From positions 1,504,001 through 1,568,000 of the forward strand of contig OZ244587.1 of the NCBI GenBank assembly GCA_965218095.1: a stretch of 64,000 nucleotides of DNA. The letters are read 5' to 3'. Positions 3,307 to 59,653 of this stretch are shown piece after piece. The stretch's first letter is position 1, and every line of letters starts with the position of its first letter. The translations under genes were made by a program, and so were the position numbers. The DNA is from Candidatus Poribacteria bacterium (GTDB lineage: Bacteria; Poribacteria; WGA-4E; PCPOR2b). Below the pieces are notes generated by a model. That model was not told where the DNA came from and searched no databases. It was given only the letters and a program-made list of their open reading frames with translations.

Positions 3307-4278
3307 ATGAAGAACGATACCAACGCATACGACAGCATTCTACTCGTCGGATTTGGGGGGCCAACACCTGGTTGCTGCAAGCAATACGATTCATGTCCCG
3401 GTGAGGCGTACTGTTTCGTCGAAGGGATTGTCGGCACGGCGCCGTTGCATGCCGAGCGGGTACAAGAAGTTGCGCACCACTATGTGGCGCTCGGTGGCTT
3501 TTCGTCGTTTAATGAACTAACGTTCAGACAAGCGGATGCACTCGAAACCACATTGAAAGATAGAGGTGTTGATGCCCCTATCTACGCGGGGATGCGAAAT
3601 TGGATGCCGTACCTGCACGAGACGCTTGCGCTGATGGTCGAGAAAGGACATCGCAACATACTTGGTATTATCATGTCCGCCTATCAGTCCAAATCCAGTT
3701 GGGAGCGTTATCAGAACGATGTCACGGCTGCAATCGAAAGGCTAAATGGAGTGACACCAAATGTCAGCTATTTAGAGGACGCGTGGCATATACGCTCTGG
3801 CTTTATTAACGCCATTGCGGATCAGATTCGTGTCGCGTGCGGAGAAATGGAGGATAATCGCTTCGAGAAAGCCGCTTTGATTTTTACAGCCCACGCAATC
3901 CCGCGACCCGCAGCGAAGTCTTCGCCATATACAAAGCAGTTTCGACAAACCGCGTCAGCCGTGGCGTCGGTTCTCGGGAAAGATTTCGGTATTGCTTACC
4001 AGAGTTCACCCGATAACCCAACGGCGCCGTGGACAGGTCCCGACATCAATAATCTGATTCAAGAAAAAAAGAAGGTGGGCATTCAAGACGTCATCGTCTC
4101 GCCGATTGGCTTCCTCTGCGATCACGTCGAAGTGCTATACGACCTCGACATGGAAGCAAGAGCAACAGCCGAAACGTGCGGCATGAGCTTTATTCGTGCT
4201 GGAACCGTCGGCGATCACCCGGAATTTATCGGCATGCTGGCAGATCTGGTTTGCGAGCGGTTCAAAACGTTGAATTAA
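3307..4278 (+). CDS. hemH: Ferrochelatase (probably coproporphyrin ferrochelatase CpfC type)
   Basis: GFGGP, GMRNWMPY, FTAHAIP, YQS, PIGFLCDHVEVLYDLD signature. Confidence 0.93.
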   Translation: MKNDTNAYDSILLVGFGGPTPGCCKQYDSCPGEAYCFVEGIVGTAPLHAERVQEVAHHYVALGGFSSFNELTFRQADALETTLKDRGVDAPIYAGMRNWMPYLHETLALMVEKGHRNILGIIMSAYQSKSSWERYQNDVTAAIERLNGVTPNVSYLEDAWHIRSGFINAIADQIRVACGEMEDNRFEKAALIFTAHAIPRPAAKSSPYTKQFRQTASAVASVLGKDFGIAYQSSPDNPTAPWTGPDINNLIQEKKKVGIQDVIVSPIGFLCDHVEVLYDLDMEARATAETCGMSFIRAGTVGDHPEFIGMLADLVCERFKTLN

Positions 4279-4311
4279 ACATCAGGAGAATTAAACATCA
4301 GGAGAAAGAAA

Positions 4312-4683
4312 ATGGCCAAGTCAAAATCAAAAGTGTTTCATGCAAAATTTCATGTCAGATAGGCAATTATAGAAAGTTTGATGGAGGATTTTAAGACGGA
4401 CGATGGCTGGGCCCCAGAAGCACCAAGATTTTACCACGAAGTTAAGAATGATGATGATTTGATTGAGGTCAGTTTTGATGTTGATGAAGAAGGACTTCAA
4501 CTTCTGATGAAAGATTTTGAGACAGACGACCCAATCACCGCGCTCCAATATACAATCGATTAGGTGACAGTAGCATACTTCACGTCACAAATCAGAGGAA
4601 AATTAAGACTTGATGGTTTTGATGATGAAGGCAACCCCAAAGTCTGGACCGATGAATCGTATAACCCCTCAAATTCTGATTGA
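4312..4683 (+). pseudogene. Acidic 123-codon hypothetical ORF with two in-frame TAG codons
   Basis: AGGAGA RBS, ATG 4312, TAG at 4360-4362 and 4561-4563, TGA stop 4681-4683; AT-rich relative to flanks. Confidence 0.55.
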
Positions 4684-32715: not shown

Positions 32716-32856
32716 GTAATGAACTCCGGAAAATCAAGACTCACTAACCTTCGGAAGGTTACAGGGTCGGCTGGCGAGGATTTTCGGCGTCAAATGTCCG
32801 TTTTTGTGTCGATGCCATTTTTCATGAACCCTGCGAAGGTTTCTTTGACTCCTGAG

Positions 32857-33855
32857 CTAATCCAGTGGGCTGCAGACCACTATGCCACCTTTGTTAAGCA
32901 CATGGGTATAGATCATCGTGGTACTCACAGCCTGATGACCAAGCAACTCCTGAACGGAGACTCGAAAGGTCACACCTTGTTTTGAGGATTGATGGACGAC
33001 CTTTCGAGTCTCGGATATCGTATCCACCTTCGATCAGATGCGTCGAAAACTGTGTTGGAATGTGTGACAATTGACAGGCTTGCTGATTCCAGCTAGATTC
33101 ACAGTTTTCTGCAAGCTACTCTCATTAATATGATGCCATCGCACTTCGCCGCTTCGCGGGTCTGTGGACAGGCTTTTCGCAGGAAAAACTACTGCCAGCC
33201 CCACTCTCGGTTCGCGCTCGGATACTTCCTTTCCAAAGCAAATGGCAGATAGACACAGTCATAGCCCTTTGCCAAATCGTCGTCATGGGTCAGTTTCACA
33301 CGGTTGAGGTGTTCCTGCAGGGGGGCTTTAAGGCTTCTGGTAAGGCGGTCACATGGTCTTCCATCCCCTTCGCATCACGAACAAGAATCTGGGCGCCCTC
33401 AAAATCGATGTCCTTGACGCGGAGTCGGACGCACTCGATTAACCTTAAACCATAGCCATAAAGTAACTTTGCCATCAACTGATGGGAACCGGACGTTGCA
33501 TCTAAAATCTAACGGACCTCGTCTTTCGTCAAGACCGTCGATAGATGTTTCGGATTTTTCGCTCACACCGCATCGATTGGATCATTGAGCGGCATTTTGA
33601 GCACCTCACGATACAGGAACAGCAACGCGATCAACGCTTGATTTTGTGTTGACGCAGTAACGTTTTCATTGACCGCCAGATGGGTGAGAAACGCTTCAAT
33701 TTCGTCGGGCCCCATCTCTCCCGGGTGCTGTTTATCATGAAACAGAATATATCGTCGAATCCAGTTAACGTAGGCTTCTTCGGTTCGGATTGAGTAATGC
33801 TTCAGTCGTTTTTTTGGCGGCCCCGATCAAGGAGTTTTTTGGGGCGTCGTTGCAC
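32857..33855 (-). pseudogene. intI: Integron integrase pseudogene
   Basis: [39 protein letters not shown], integron-specific [12 protein letters not shown]...WGWQ and TDPRSG insert, [18 protein letters not shown]; several frameshifts and stops. Confidence 0.9.
32958..33011. mobile_element. 54-bp miniature inverted-repeat insertion within intI
   Basis: Perfect 14-bp IR AGACTCGAAAGGTC / GACCTTTCGAGTCT, CGG on both sides. Confidence 0.65.
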
Positions 33856-34019
33856 TTTTTGCCTTCACAACTTTCCGTTGACTACGGTTTAGAAAGATTG
33901 TATAATTTCGTCAACCGTTTGATTTCTATTTTATCAGGTTTTGGAAATTGATTCAAGTGGGAAATTCTGGATAAATTTTTTATACGGAAAAAATTCTGGC
34001 ATAAAGGATTATACGGAAT

Positions 34020-34046
34020 TTTTTCCGTATAATCAAGAGTTAGCTG
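34020..34046 (+). other. Putative attI site
   Basis: AT-rich region upstream of divergent intI, ending in core GTTAGCT (34040-34046) just before the first gene. Confidence 0.55.
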
Positions 34047-34063: not shown

Positions 34064-34624
34064 TTGAGGATAGTCACAGGGAATCAGGCAAGAGATATCC
34101 AGAAGGCGATTCAGAGGAAGTACAAGGAGGTCTCCCATACGGCAGAAGACAAGTTCACGTATCCCACCGGACAGGAAGGTGCGGAGACCTTGGGTTATGA
34201 TTAGGCTTTGATATCCAGTGTCCTAAGTGACGTGCTCAAGTCGTTCTGTGGGGTTGGCAATCCCTTTGCATTCACAGCAGTTGGGAGGGGACGGACTGTC
34301 CTGGACGTAGGATGCGGCGCAGGATTTGACGTCTTCTTTGCCAGTCAGTTGGTTGGGCCATCGGGGCGGGTATACGGGATCGACCTTACGCCGGAAATGG
34401 TGAGGTGTGCACAGAAGAATCTGGCCAAGGCAGGCGTTGCAAACGCAGAGGTTCGCCAAGCAACGTCGGAGTCAATCCCATGTGAGAGTGCCACCTTCGG
34501 CATGGTTACTTCCAACGGCGTCCTGAATCTTTCACCTCGGAAGGATACATCATTCAGGGAGATTCTACAGGTGCTTCGACTAGGAGGGCGGACAGCCCAC
34601 ACAAGACGCTTTTGTCCTTCCTGA
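34064..34624 (+). pseudogene. ArsM-like SAM methyltransferase, first-cassette position, in-frame TAG and truncated 3' end
   Basis: KY..VS....KF.YPTG, SFCGVGNPF, LDVGCGAGFD, SNGVLNL; TAG at 34202-34204; start uncertain. Confidence 0.75.
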
Positions 34625-56553: not shown

Positions 56554-57366
56554 CTACCAGTGTGGCTTGAGCAGATGCATCAGGTTGCGATAGGCAGAAA
56601 TTGCAGCCTGGTCCACCTCGGGGATGGGGGGCCAGCCCCGATCGTCGAACTCGATCTCAACGCTCAAGGGACCGCGGTAGCCCCCGTCATCCAGAATGTT
56701 TAACACTCTCTCAAAATCAATCTCGCCCATCCCTATAGGTGGAAAGTTCCATACGCCTTTCCCGTCGATCTTATCCTTTAGATGAATATGCACCATCTCG
56801 GGCACAGCAACCTGCAAGTCTTCGTAGGGCAAAGTATCGCCGAAATACACGCAGTTAGCCGTATCATAGTTGATCTTCACATTGGGATGGTTGACCTTAC
56901 GAATCGTATCCAAAATGAGTCTGCCGTTGGCGGTGTGGTCGCCATGCACCTCAAGCCCGAGCGTCACACCTGCTTGCCTGGCATGCTCCGCCACCTCATT
57001 GATATTTGCCATAAACATGGACATATCTTCTTGATGGCTGGACCCGCCGATTGTGTTAACGACGATTCGCGCACCAAGCTTCGGCGCGAGGCTGATGGCC
57101 TTTTTTGCGAGCTCAGCGCCGGTTTTCGTCATCAGACCGGTGTTTGAGTTCATACCCGAGGCCTTGAGATTGTACTGGTCAAGCTTTGCCAGTAAGTCCT
57201 CGACTCCGGTGTCATCCATGTCGAGGGAAACGTGCTCAATCATACCTGGACAGGCTGCCAGTTCAACGTACTGGAACCCAGCCCCACTGATGCCTTTCAA
57301 TGCATCCTCCAGGCTATAATGATGGTAAGACACCGTGCCCATAGCAACAATCTTCGATAAACTCAC
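56554..57366 (-). CDS. Sugar phosphate isomerase/epimerase (xylose isomerase-like TIM barrel)
   Basis: LEVH, NYDTAN, HIHLKD, GEIDF, LSVEIE; GGAGG RBS. Confidence 0.9.
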   Translation of the reverse strand: MSLSKIVAMGTVSYHHYSLEDALKGISGAGFQYVELAACPGMIEHVSLDMDDTGVEDLLAKLDQYNLKASGMNSNTGLMTKTGAELAKKAISLAPKLGARIVVNTIGGSSHQEDMSMFMANINEVAEHARQAGVTLGLEVHGDHTANGRLILDTIRKVNHPNVKINYDTANCVYFGDTLPYEDLQVAVPEMVHIHLKDKIDGKGVWNFPPIGMGEIDFERVLNILDDGGYRGPLSVEIEFDDRGWPPIPEVDQAAISAYRNLMHLLKPHW

Positions 57367-57486
57367 GGTTTACCTCCTTTCCCTGCACTCAATTTTGGTA
57401 TCTTCGGTTCGCTTAATCTCTTGGATAGCTTCAACTTGCATTCTTCAAATATTTCCTCTTTTTCAATGATGATGGTTTCTTTTGGC

Positions 57487-57558
57487 GCCGAACGATCAAG
57501 CTCACCGGCGGCAATGGAGCGCAACGGAATTGCCGCCCGGTGCAGCGTTTTGTTAGCC
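57487..57558 (-). other. Integron attC site (72 bp)
   Basis: Minus strand GGCTAAC-AAAACGCTGCACCGGGCGGCAAT-TCCGTTGCGCTCC-ATTGCCGCCGGTGAGCTTGATC-GTTCGGC: inverse core, imperfect palindrome, core; 7 bp after the TPR gene stop. Confidence 0.85.
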
Positions 57559-58538
57559 ATTTGTATCACCGTTTTATCGCATCAATCTGAGCGGCACGCT
57601 TCTCTAGTTTTTTAGCTTTTTCGCTACGGTCCGTTGCTCTATAGAGTTCTGCAAGATTGTTGAGGCTTGTCGCCACATCGGGGTGGTCGTAGCCGAGTGC
57701 TTTTTCGTGTATTGAGAGGGAACGCTTGAGGAGTGGTTCGGCTTTGGCGTAATTGCCTTGGGTTTTATAGAGGAATGCAAGATTGTTGAGGCTTATAGCC
57801 ACATCGGGGTGGTCGGAGCCGAGTGCTTTTTCCCTTATTGAGAGGGAACGTTTGTAGAGCGGTTCGGCTTTGGCGTAATTGCCTTGGGTGTAATAGAGTG
57901 ATGCAAGATTGTTCAGGCTTGTCGCCACATTGGGATGGTCGGGACCGAGTGCTTTTTCGTGTATTGAGAGTGCACGCTTGAGGAGCGGTTCGGCTTTGGC
58001 GTAATTGCCTTGGGTTTTATAGAGTGATGCAAGATTGTTCAGGCTTGTCGCTACATCGGGGTGGTCGGAGCCGAGTGCTTTTTCCCAGATTGAGAGGGAA
58101 CGCTTGAGGAGTGGTTCGGCTTTGGTGTAATTGCCTTGGGTGTAATAGAGTAATGCAAGATTGTTCAGGCTTGTCGCCACATTGGGGTGGTTGGGACCGA
58201 GTGCTTTTTCCCTTATTGAGAGGGCACGCTTGTAGAGCGGTTCGGCTTTGGCGTAATTGCCTTGGGTTTTATAGAGTGATGCAAGAATGTTCAGGCTTGT
58301 CGCCACATCGGGGTGGTCGGGACCGACATTATTCTCAGCGACTTTGTAAGCTTCTTGAGCAACAATAACAGCACGCTCATATTTGCCTGCACGATAGAGT
58401 TTAACAGCTTCTTGGTTCAGAATATCCCATTCTATGCCAGCTCCCTGTGCAAATACATTTAATGCTCCAAGTTGTAAGAGCGAAAAAATCACTGTAACTA
58501 ATTTTACAATTTTCATATTTATATCCTTGTATGGCTAA
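57493..58538 (-). mobile_element. Integron gene cassette carrying the TPR gene
   Basis: 5' core G/TTAGCC at 58539-58533 is the exact complement of the attC inverse core GGCTAAC. Confidence 0.8.
57566..58516 (-). CDS. Secreted tetratricopeptide repeat protein (kinesin light chain-type 42-aa repeats)
   Basis: Signal peptide ending VFA; five full plus flanking partial HP(D/N)VATSLNNLA..Y..QG.Y..AEPL repeats. Confidence 0.93.
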   Translation of the reverse strand: MKIVKLVTVIFSLLQLGALNVFAQGAGIEWDILNQEAVKLYRAGKYERAVIVAQEAYKVAENNVGPDHPDVATSLNILASLYKTQGNYAKAEPLYKRALSIREKALGPNHPNVATSLNNLALLYYTQGNYTKAEPLLKRSLSIWEKALGSDHPDVATSLNNLASLYKTQGNYAKAEPLLKRALSIHEKALGPDHPNVATSLNNLASLYYTQGNYAKAEPLYKRSLSIREKALGSDHPDVAISLNNLAFLYKTQGNYAKAEPLLKRSLSIHEKALGYDHPDVATSLNNLAELYRATDRSEKAKKLEKRAAQIDAIKR

Positions 58539-58567
58539 CATAATATTAGCCAACACTTCTGTGCTTA

Positions 58568-58836
58568 GAACCTGTTTTAAAAACCCAAGTTGCTACTTGA
58601 AAAACACCGTTGAGAAATGCTCGGAAGTTGCATACTTTTCATACTTTTCCGAGGAAACGGGAGAATTTGATAGAGACAAAAAAGGGTGAGAACTCACGCT
58701 AGGACTCATTTTTGGGCGGTTTGCACAGGAAGGGTACTCGGAAAAGTACTCAGAAACCCAAGTTGCCACCTTAATCAGTTTTCAATATTAAATTTACACT
58801 ACTTTCATAGGAGAAGATGACTTTTCAAACAGGCTC
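58568..58836. mobile_element. MITE with IS5/IS1031-like ends
   Basis: GAACCTGTTTTAAAA / TTTTCAAACAGGCTC imperfect IR; TTA on both sides. Confidence 0.7.
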
Positions 58837-58856
58837 TTATCGGTATACAAGTATTT
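58836..58856 (+). repeat. 21-bp direct repeat, right copy
   Basis: CTTATCGGTATACAAGTATTT, identical at 51407-51427. Confidence 0.85.
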
Positions 58857-58867
58857 ATCGTTAGAGC

Positions 58868-59653
58868 CTAATCTTTCACGCGGTGCCATCGCAGCACCTG
58901 TCGGGCGTGTTCTGACAGGCTCTCCCAAAGATCTCGGGGGAAGTGCTTCTCGGTGTACTCATGCTGCCACCGGCTGAAGAGCCAGGGGCGACAAAACCCC
59001 ATACACAGTTCGTCACGCGGCTGATCTGACCGATTGGGGGTGCCGCGATGGAAGGGGCGCCCATCCTGCACCGAGAGCGAGCCTTTTTGGAGGTTGAGCC
59101 GAATGGGATAATACCGGCCGCGGCGGTTGGCCCCAGCGCCAAAGACGGTATCCAAATCAGTGAGTAAGTCCTTGTCGGCGATATATTGTGTACATGGAAT
59201 TATTTCGGTACTACCATTCTCTTCGCTCGTGTCAACCAGTGGAAATTTCACTCCTACGGCATAGGCCGGCGTTGGTACACCCGGGAACAGCGCGGCGCCG
59301 TCGTCCCGATGCCATTTCTGATAGTCCGTTCCCGGCAGTGGGATGTTTGAGTCAAAGTGTGACCAGATGTAGTCCGGTCCCAGCACTCGTTCAAAGAACT
59401 CGACCAGGGCAGGGTGCTCGAAGATCCCCGGATCGACAAACGGTTGCTCGAATGGCACCCGGACGTTATAGCGAAGACGGCCGCGGCTCGGATACTCCCC
59501 CTGCCGCTCGATGTCGCGGTCTCGAATCGGTATCCAGACCTCGCGAATCCGGTCAATCGTCTCCAACGGGATGAGGTCTTCAAAGACAACGAACCCGTTA
59601 ATCCGCCATTCCTGCATAAGTTGGTCAATGTCATACTTCGTAGCAAGACTCAT
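58868..59653 (-). CDS. PhyH family Fe(II)/2OG dioxygenase, paralog of 50576-51397
   Basis: NGFVVFEDLIP.ETIDRIRE, QKWHRD, GVKFPLVDT.EENGS, FHRGTPNR. Confidence 0.9.
   Translation of the reverse strand: MSLATKYDIDQLMQEWRINGFVVFEDLIPLETIDRIREVWIPIRDRDIERQGEYPSRGRLRYNVRVPFEQPFVDPGIFEHPALVEFFERVLGPDYIWSHFDSNIPLPGTDYQKWHRDDGAALFPGVPTPAYAVGVKFPLVDTSEENGSTEIIPCTQYIADKDLLTDLDTVFGAGANRRGRYYPIRLNLQKGSLSVQDGRPFHRGTPNRSDQPRDELCMGFCRPWLFSRWQHEYTEKHFPRDLWESLSEHARQVLRWHRVKD

Follow-up and report, generated by a model that had tools for sequence, protein, structure and literature searches.

A tetratricopeptide repeat gene as a probable integron cassette behind an attI-like site in a Candidatus Poribacteria chromosome

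Introduction

The Vibrio superintegron is an example of a sedentary chromosomal integron, and in mobile integrons the attI simple site is made of two inverted boxes, bound by the integron integrase (IntI), around the crossover G|TT. The core boxes of attC sites follow the consensus RYYYAAC (R'') and GTTRRRY (R'), and in the attC sites that have been studied the bulged bases of the bottom strand are G or T. Attachment sites of this kind also occur without an integron integrase, either singly or in clusters, and are then distinguished as SALINs and CALINs, respectively, in 10.1101/2022.09.11.507474. For sponge symbionts, PMC13747020 reports that a protein of the tetratricopeptide repeat (TPR) class altered the interaction between bacteria and sponge and that such proteins are found on mobile elements, and it implicates phages and other mobile elements in the spread of eukaryotic-like repeat proteins among these bacteria. 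At the level of titles and abstract openings, we found no literature on integrons in Poribacteria, nor any that links integron cassettes to sponge symbionts or to such TPR proteins. Here we analyse a TPR gene and the 72-nt palindromic element behind it in a 64,000-nucleotide stretch (the window, G000:C1:1504001-1568000) of a Candidatus Poribacteria genome, G000, which consists of one contig of 6.35 Mb with 50% G+C; an earlier note on this DNA, made from the sequence alone, had read the two as an orphan integron cassette.

Results

Boundaries and contexts of the cassette

The TPR gene and its 72-nt hairpin are very probably a bona fide integron gene cassette, the first behind an attI-like site in the remains of an integrase-less array. 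The features that define it are the following.

57493..58538, minus strand: TPR gene cassette, 1,046 bp, beginning with the T that follows the crossover in G|TTAGCC and ending with the G of G|TTCGGC
57566..58516, minus strand: TPR open reading frame (ORF), 316 aa
57487..57558, minus strand: attC site, 72 nt, from GGCTAAC (R'') to GTTCGGC (R')
58539..58567, minus strand: attI-like left half-site TAAGCACAGAAGTGTTGGCTAATATTATG, with the crossover between G 58539 and T 58538
58533..58551, no strand assigned: 19-bp inverted repeat GGCTAATATTATGTTAGCC (GGCTAAT-ATTAT-GTTAGCC), 90% complementary, made of an L box, a 5-nt spacer and an R box

The 5' end of the cassette is present four times in G000 (in the window and at 575.7 kb, 2412.37 kb and 2754.72 kb), always with the junction G|TTAGCCATACAAGG (G|TTAGCC). 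In the window it is preceded by the attI-like block, in the other three copies by an attC of a second family (type B), and the sequence upstream of the type-B attC differs among the copies at 575.8, 2412.5 and 2754.8 kb. The ORF is truncated after about 79 aa in the 2412.37 kb copy and after 7 codons in the 2754.72 kb copy; between the two full copies of the cassette, similarity at the 3' end runs to ..TCG|TT, with divergence thereafter. Paralogue identity defines the cassette ends, beginning exactly at TTAGCC and stopping at the G/GTT of R'. A blastn search of G000 with the element returned a copy of 93% identity at 574.05-574.14 kb and another, partial, at 577.11 kb; the first lies behind a TPR paralogue of 526 aa, which has the same first 62 residues at 98% and five more 42-aa repeats. 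Since one unit is found in several contexts with its junctions at the core site, the TPR unit behaves as a cassette, and the identification made in the earlier note is borne out by these boundaries, by the four contexts, and by the attC family and covariance-model match described below. The 5' end of the cassette stands in four contexts, and a homologue in a relative is followed by a decayed attC-like element, contrary to the single fixed position without attC that the earlier note had named as speaking against its proposal.

The attC element and its family

The sequence description in that note proved right to the base: GGCTAAC starts at 57558, 7 nt beyond the TPR stop codon, and the 72-nt element ends in GTTCGGC at 57487. 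On the gene strand the layout is R'' GGCTAAC, spacer AAAAC, L'' GCTGCACC, stem, L' GGTGAGC, spacer TTGATC and R' GTTCGGC. The central stem (GGCGGCAAT / ATTGCCGCC) forms nine perfect pairs around a 13-nt loop, or 16 pairs when two single-base bulges are included; GCTGCACC pairs with GGTGAGC with one bulge, and the spacers AAAAC and TTGATC match the criterion of 5-6 unpaired nt. Two additional G on the 5' arm of the top strand become C bulges on the bottom strand. Ahead of the gene, 16 nt short of its ATG, stands GTTAGCC (58539-58533, minus strand), which complements GGCTAAC exactly; the inverse core does complement the cassette's own 5' core, 7/7, as had been noted.

Metagenome contigs were queried with an attC-core pattern, an IUPAC pattern of stem and loop that itself fixes nine of the 16 inner pairs; it matched 16 contigs, in which the inner parts are near-identical to the window element and the R''/R' boxes vary by contig. 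The window attC family occurs in a complete integron, with intI, attI and cassettes: the contigs L056 and L061 (duplicates over the compared part) encode an integron integrase of 350 aa (461.8 bits to TIGR02249, cut-off 265) that shares 62% identity with the intact IntI of the relative G006, and they also carry the junction ..GTCGAATACATAG|TTAGGC (attI) and three or more cassettes on the opposite strand, of which the third has an attC of the window family.

The covariance model R1 was trained on 15 of these 16 contigs, with L061 left out as a duplicate of L056 and no G000 sequence included, and was built with the canonical attC pairing imposed. It matches 57487-57558 on the minus strand over its full length (86.3 bits, E 1.6e-28, a rough value), against 28.9 bits on the other strand. 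This match, by a model built from metagenome sequences only, is better evidence for an attC than folding is. Elsewhere in G000, R1 recovers the two other intact copies, both in the array L009 (82.5 and 71.3 bits); at 231.45 kb it detects a decayed one (28.6 bits). The attC-model match that the earlier note had called for at this place was thus obtained with R1, which is family-specific and distinct from the attC model of IntegronFinder, for which it is a stand-in.

Two home-made attC scans, both based on R''/R' and L-box pairing, with and without folding, were dropped: one gave 254 and 250 matches against 313 in the reversed-sequence control and missed the true sites, and the other gave 228 and 233 matches against 759 and 677 in its reversed-sequence controls. 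Rfam, used for RNA families, returned nothing in 57300-58800 at E up to 10. Among 159 genomes of the order, the core of the window family (family A, up to one mismatch) was matched in six; the family loop is found in the three copies of G000 only, and the matches in the other five look unrelated.

The decayed copy at 231.45 kb (L019 5447-5516) is a solitary family-A attC between remnants of insertion sequences (IS) and a gene for a 370-aa membrane protein. In two of the 16 metagenome family copies (L054 665-736 and L065 684-755) the 13-nt loop is inverted relative to the L/R boxes with the stem arms unchanged, as if it had been flipped between the two arms of the perfect 9-bp stem.

The attI-like block and the L009 array

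The palindrome upstream of the TPR gene has the attI simple-site layout that the earlier note had recognised in it, and it also heads the five-cassette array L009 elsewhere in G000. The 33-nt block at 58535-58567, one of two occurrences in the genome, is 97% identical to the head of that array at genome 579611-579643. The array, on the minus strand, is made up as follows.

L009, part 1: head block AAGCACAGAAGTATTGGCTAATATTATG|TTAGGG
L009, part 2: Eco57I-type methylase and BsuBI/PstI endonuclease, then a 71-nt attC of the window family (R'' CCCTAAC)
L009, part 3: 164-aa gene, then a 98-nt attC
L009, part 4: DUF4258/DUF2283 pair, then an attC ending ..TTTTTCG|TTAGCC
L009, part 5: TPR gene (526 aa), then an attC ending ..GGTCG|TTTGGA
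L009, part 6: 172-aa gene after the TPR attC

L009 is thus a five-cassette array with restriction-modification (RM) and toxin-antitoxin (TA) cargo. Its four attC sites occupy L009 8045-8115, 9720-9834, 10333-10430 and 11094-11164. The same 29-nt left part joins TTAGCC (TPR) in the window and TTAGGG (RM cassette) in L009, and this comparison of the two array heads supports the position of the crossover. The second attC family, type B, gave 19 blastn matches spread over G000, one of which lies about 1 kb from an intI remnant at 1055.8 kb in the expected orientation. Another type-B attC, at L009 2255-2389 (G000 568.25-568.39 kb), lies about 5.7 kb past the last attC of the L009 array (that behind the 526-aa TPR gene), from which it is separated by genes of 172, 621 and 410 aa; the array may extend further or be interrupted.

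Sites proximal to intI share the same 7-5-7 layout, namely GTCTAAT-TAATA-G|TTAGGT in the relative G001 (contig C62) and GTATAAT-CAAGA-G|TTAGCT near 34.03 kb of the window, and a site at 1056.0 kb of G000 (GTCTAAT-CAGA-G|TTAGGC) has it with a 4-nt spacer. The attI-like block takes part in no long hairpin, which argues that it is no attC end. Like an attI, it stands at the head of an array with a G|TT crossover; it does not adjoin an intI of its own.

Matches to the 19-mer with up to two mismatches occur in 4 of 41 genomes, against 3 of 41 for the reversed control, and so lie near noise; one-mismatch variants of the motif stand ahead of small genes in the relatives G006 and G027. A longer 21-mer has 23 matches in GTDB contigs, three of them in Poribacteria records, where about nine are expected by chance (an estimate from uniform composition). 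Across 26 rows, comprising these 23 matches and three relatives' loci that repeat three of the same places, the exact predicted R'' follows the 21-mer in one (L039), and near-matches to R'' are not above chance. In L039, a contig of an Ignavibacteriales metagenome-assembled genome, the 21-mer is followed (3540-4375) by one membrane-protein cassette with the attC GCCTAAC...GTTAAGG, and there is no intI within 3.5 kb upstream of the motif. Outside Poribacteria and L039 the case for the 21-mer is unproven.

Whether the 5' TTNNNN of a cassette complements its own R'', as in a circular form, was judged by eye in the eight cassettes with a recognised R''. Six of them match 7/7 (window TPR, L009 TPR, L009 RM, L056 cassettes 1 and 3, and L039), and two match 6/7 (L009 164-aa and L056 cassette 2). 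In a ninth, the DUF4258/DUF2283 cassette of L009, no R'' was recognised by eye.

A probable fragment of a decayed array

Two further features border the cassette and its attI-like block.

57396..57492, minus strand: second-cassette stub, 97 nt, with a 5' leader and about 16 codons of a DNA methyltransferase-like gene
58563..58788, no strand assigned: repeat of about 220 bp resembling a miniature inverted-repeat transposable element (MITE), found by blastn at 10 other places in G000, two of them at 98.6% identity (2713 kb and 4661 kb)

The stub is 90% identical over 94 nt to genome 5565581-5565671, which there lies behind a type-B attC (..GGTCG|TTAGGCGCC..) and leads into a long ORF resembling a DNA methyltransferase gene. 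In the window this homology stops just ahead of the ribosome-binding site of an isomerase gene, and the stub is joined to the upstream region of that gene. On the other side, homology of the MITE-like repeat begins where homology to the L009 array head ends. With the stub downstream and the MITE-like repeat abutting the block, the locus is best described as a fragment of a decayed array, consisting of an attI-like site, the TPR cassette and a truncated second cassette. The earlier description of an orphan cassette therefore holds as regards the cassette, but not as regards a clean orphan insertion.

The locus was compared with four runs, all of them consisting of assembled contigs. A 671-nt contig of run X1, which may be the source sample, spans 57000-57578 with 0 differences, and the stub junction is hence not peculiar to the assembly. 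Where contigs are joined within the TPR repeats or over 58584-58816, the sides measure less than 30 nt.

The MITE-like repeat at 58563-58788 carries the IS-end-like motif CCCAAGTTGC twice in direct orientation. Among the matches listed for G000 there are 27 occurrences (14 plus, 13 minus) of an IS-like sequence with the start TGATTAACAAACTGCTTCCACG, for example at 557378, 877533 and 1134938.

Integrase remnants

Integron integrases of G000 were searched with the profile TIGR02249 (cut-off 265 bits), and the best match lies in the window.

32854..33808, minus strand: broken integron integrase gene, 216.3 bits to TIGR02249, with 4 TGA, 2 TAG and 1 TAA inside

This is the pseudogene that the earlier note had placed about 24 kb away, and the present count agrees: it has seven stops and lies 23.7 kb from the attC element. 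Three other places, at 1055.4-1055.8 kb, 1226.0 kb and 2745.0 kb, have partial TIGR02249 matches free of internal stops. Near 34.03 kb an attI-like site belonging to the window remnant faces the plus strand; no R1 or type-B match lies between this remnant and the TPR locus, which places the TPR cassette outside the remnant's array. On these searches, G000 is a genome of many scattered cassettes in which no intact integrase was found, the best remnant being broken and the others partial. The locus lacks the functional intI adjoining an attI and array by which a complete integron is recognised.

Among 40 relatives, a single intact IntI was found (G006:C646, L016 2443-2700, 505.8 bits), with no recognisable cassette behind it; the gene that comes next lies on the other strand and encodes a repeat protein.

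The first cassette position behind the broken intI of the window (34208-34624) holds a methyltransferase-like ORF that looks disrupted, with GTTAGGA at about 34658 and GTTAGCC at about 34718. Between intI remnants and first cassettes (window 33809-34040; G000 1225.8-1226.0 kb; L017, that is G001:C62) there are repeated palindromes ACGGAAAnnTTyCGT and then (C/A)TAAT; the palindromes may be the integrase-binding repeats of attI in this bacterial family. The window and 1226-kb copies of the region from intI to cassette are near-identical over about 150 nt.

The TPR protein, its neighbours and relatives

Searched against Pfam, the TPR protein matches TPR_NPHP3 (1.9e-123), TPR_12 (2.1e-122, six stretches) and TPR_10 (5.5e-95, six stretches), and it consists of six 42-aa repeats after the N-terminus MKIVKLVTVIFSLLQLGALNVFA|QG. 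Judged by eye, this N-terminus resembles a Sec signal peptide, a putative assignment, and the protein may be secreted and may have a host-related function. The G+C content of the gene is 47.9%, against 50% genome-wide. The flanking genes are these.

56554..57366, minus strand: xylose isomerase-like TIM barrel gene (Pfam AP_endonuc_2 1.3e-38), flanking the locus downstream of the stub, outside the cassette
58868..59653, minus strand: PhyH-family dioxygenase gene (Pfam PhyH 3e-15), upstream flank

Of 28 other family genomes searched with the N-terminal 70 aa of the TPR protein, one (G002) has a homologue, at 80% identity in a 499-aa ORF; a decayed attC-like element ending GTTAGCG follows it. Orthologues of the PhyH gene occur in three of five relatives (85%, 76% and 75% identity) next to other neighbours, which map elsewhere in G000; the isomerase was found in none of the five at E 1e-40.

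Four RNA libraries from a single study, which carry the label sponge metagenome, contain 17-24% of the sampled words of 57000-59000. In the two that were compared, contigs match parts of the stretch with 0-9 differences, and one contig of 360 nt spans 57146-57504, from the start of the isomerase gene through the stub to the first 18 nt of the attC. These contigs fit a sponge-associated close relative, and they bear neither way on transcription.

Discussion

A plausible order of events would begin with an integron integrase excising the cassette as a circle, where R' (G+TTAGCC) and R'' (GGCTAAC) are paired. The folded bottom strand of the attC would then have recombined with the attI-like site at G|TT, setting the TPR gene first, ahead of the DNA methyltransferase cassette; a later deletion would have reduced that second cassette to 97 nt, and a MITE-like element would have been inserted 25 nt upstream of the crossover. 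Decay of the integrase genes of G000 would have left the cassette fixed unless an integrase acts in trans. We infer both this order and the recombination by IntI. A cassette-free form of the locus would join the attI-like block to TTCGGCGCC, and a circular form would join ..TCG to TTAGCC.

Several observations weigh against this account. R'' and R' hold the conserved AAC and GTT and yet are each one position off the attC consensus; and the extrahelical bases that the earlier note had asked to be looked for are present, but are C on the bottom strand, unlike the G or T of the attC sites studied. The folding energy of the 86-nt region is no better than that of shuffled sequences (z -0.6 and -1.1). 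Covariation in the family alignment does not exceed that of shuffles (paired cells make up 88.3%, against 88.0% on average after shuffling); of the 16 inner pairs 11 are invariant, nine of them by construction of the search pattern, and the R''/R' helix is only 65% paired. No sigma-70-type promoter was matched within 57300-58900, and no TIGR02249 match in G000 reaches the cut-off. No contig of the four runs joins across the cassette, which, for contigs, is no evidence of absence. No empty site could be identified in five relatives, as synteny around the locus is not kept in them. Finally, no intI lies beside the motif in any of six cassette-linked loci (window, L009, L038, L039, L040 and L042, in L040 over about 150 nt upstream); of the same places, L015 and L012 were checked by ORF list and L011 by sequence alone, with an upstream span of about 150 nt in L040 and L011.

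That the hairpin could merely end transcription of the TPR gene, or be a REP-like palindrome belonging to it, with core-site matches arising by chance, would suit its position 7 nt past the stop codon, its unremarkable fold scores and its 9-bp GC-rich stem, which would stall transcription on either strand. This reading is already contradicted and hardly credible: no T-run follows the stem on the gene strand and a terminator scan did not call the hairpin, the same element stands behind unrelated genes in 16 metagenome contigs with R'' changing from cassette to cassette, the family occurs in an array beside an integron integrase, and homology between copies stops exactly at G|TT. Spread of the TPR copies by segmental duplication, through IS or MITE elements or homologous recombination, with the attC as a passive passenger, appears very improbable. 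G000 is indeed rich in repeats (the IS-like end 27 times, the MITE-like repeat at 10 other places), three of the four copies have the same type-B attC upstream, possibly as one larger duplicated block, and two are truncated within the ORF; yet the sequence ahead of the type-B attC is different in each of those three, and the upstream partner in the window is the attI-like block instead, the switch falling exactly at G|TT, a junction for which duplication cannot account.

A more serious alternative accepts the cassette and holds that it was put straight into a genomic secondary site (attG-type, SALIN), the 21-mer being a preferred landing site instead of an attI and the locus no remnant of an integron platform. 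The six loci in which the motif has no intI beside it, L039, where it heads exactly one cassette with an attC, and its absence from any long hairpin all agree with this, and 10.1101/2022.09.11.507474 describes cassettes that insert outside att sites, a proposed origin of SALINs and small CALINs. Against it, a truncated second cassette after the TPR cassette and the same block at the head of a five-cassette array fit a reused attI better, the block shares its layout of L box, spacer and R box with the intI-proximal sites of this bacterial family, and the attG consensus given for IntI1 in the same source is just GWT, no 21-mer; on balance we hold secondary-site insertion to be rather unlikely. 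The block may be a true attI repeatedly stripped of its integrase or a free-standing landing site, the latter being rather unlikely for this locus. What calls for explanation is the attI-like 21-mer: it stands ahead of cassettes both in Poribacteria and in a single Ignavibacteriales contig, and never beside intI where the upstream DNA could be examined. A bolder and distinctly unlikely reading makes the conserved 21-mer (A)GTGTTGNNTAATATTATG|TTAG a landing pad that stands by itself, with no integrase, at several Poribacteria loci and in other phyla (e.g., Ignavibacteriales, L039), served in trans by an integrase that is encoded elsewhere or present transiently; if so, dispersed loci could capture and express cassettes, TPR-type candidate host-interaction genes among them, with no need of a classical integron platform.

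On the reading preferred here, of a genuine cassette first behind an attI-like site, the TPR gene is identified as a discrete integron cassette by sequence comparison alone. This cassette has been at no fewer than four positions within one Poribacteria chromosome, and a complete integron and other environmental metagenome contigs share its attC family. The suggestion that integrons move candidate symbiosis effectors in this lineage accordingly stands for past movement but not for the present, given that no intact integrase was found in G000. Cassette, attI-like site and a relative's intact IntI are all defined at base resolution and offer a concrete, testable vehicle. Broken or partial integrase remnants alongside many scattered cassettes also bear on the origin of CALINs and SALINs.

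Set beside sponge-symbiont eukaryotic-like TPR proteins, the gene is similar in its TPR_12/TPR_10 repeats, its Poribacteria host and the sponge-labelled RNA contigs that match the locus; with the protein assayed in PMC13747020 it has the TPR class in common. The block resembles the attI simple site of mobile integrons in its 7-5-7 arrangement (GGCTAAT-ATTAT-G|TTAGCC) and differs in not adjoining intI, with IntI binding putative; it is also without the direct repeats seen in the intI-proximal sites of this bacterial family. Like sedentary chromosomal integrons, G000 has chromosomal cassettes with TA and RM cargo, a dominant attC family (type B, 19 matches) and duplicated cassettes. In contrast to them, it has no single large array, its cassettes lying in small scattered groups with at least two attC families, and its best integrase remnant has seven stops, the others being partial. 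The locus fits the known SALIN/CALIN kind, with one attC cassette and no intact intI nearby in the window and a paralogue in a cluster of four attC sites without intI; unlike a SALIN, it keeps an attI-like half-site and the stub of a second cassette, the class being assigned here by our own criteria rather than by IntegronFinder.

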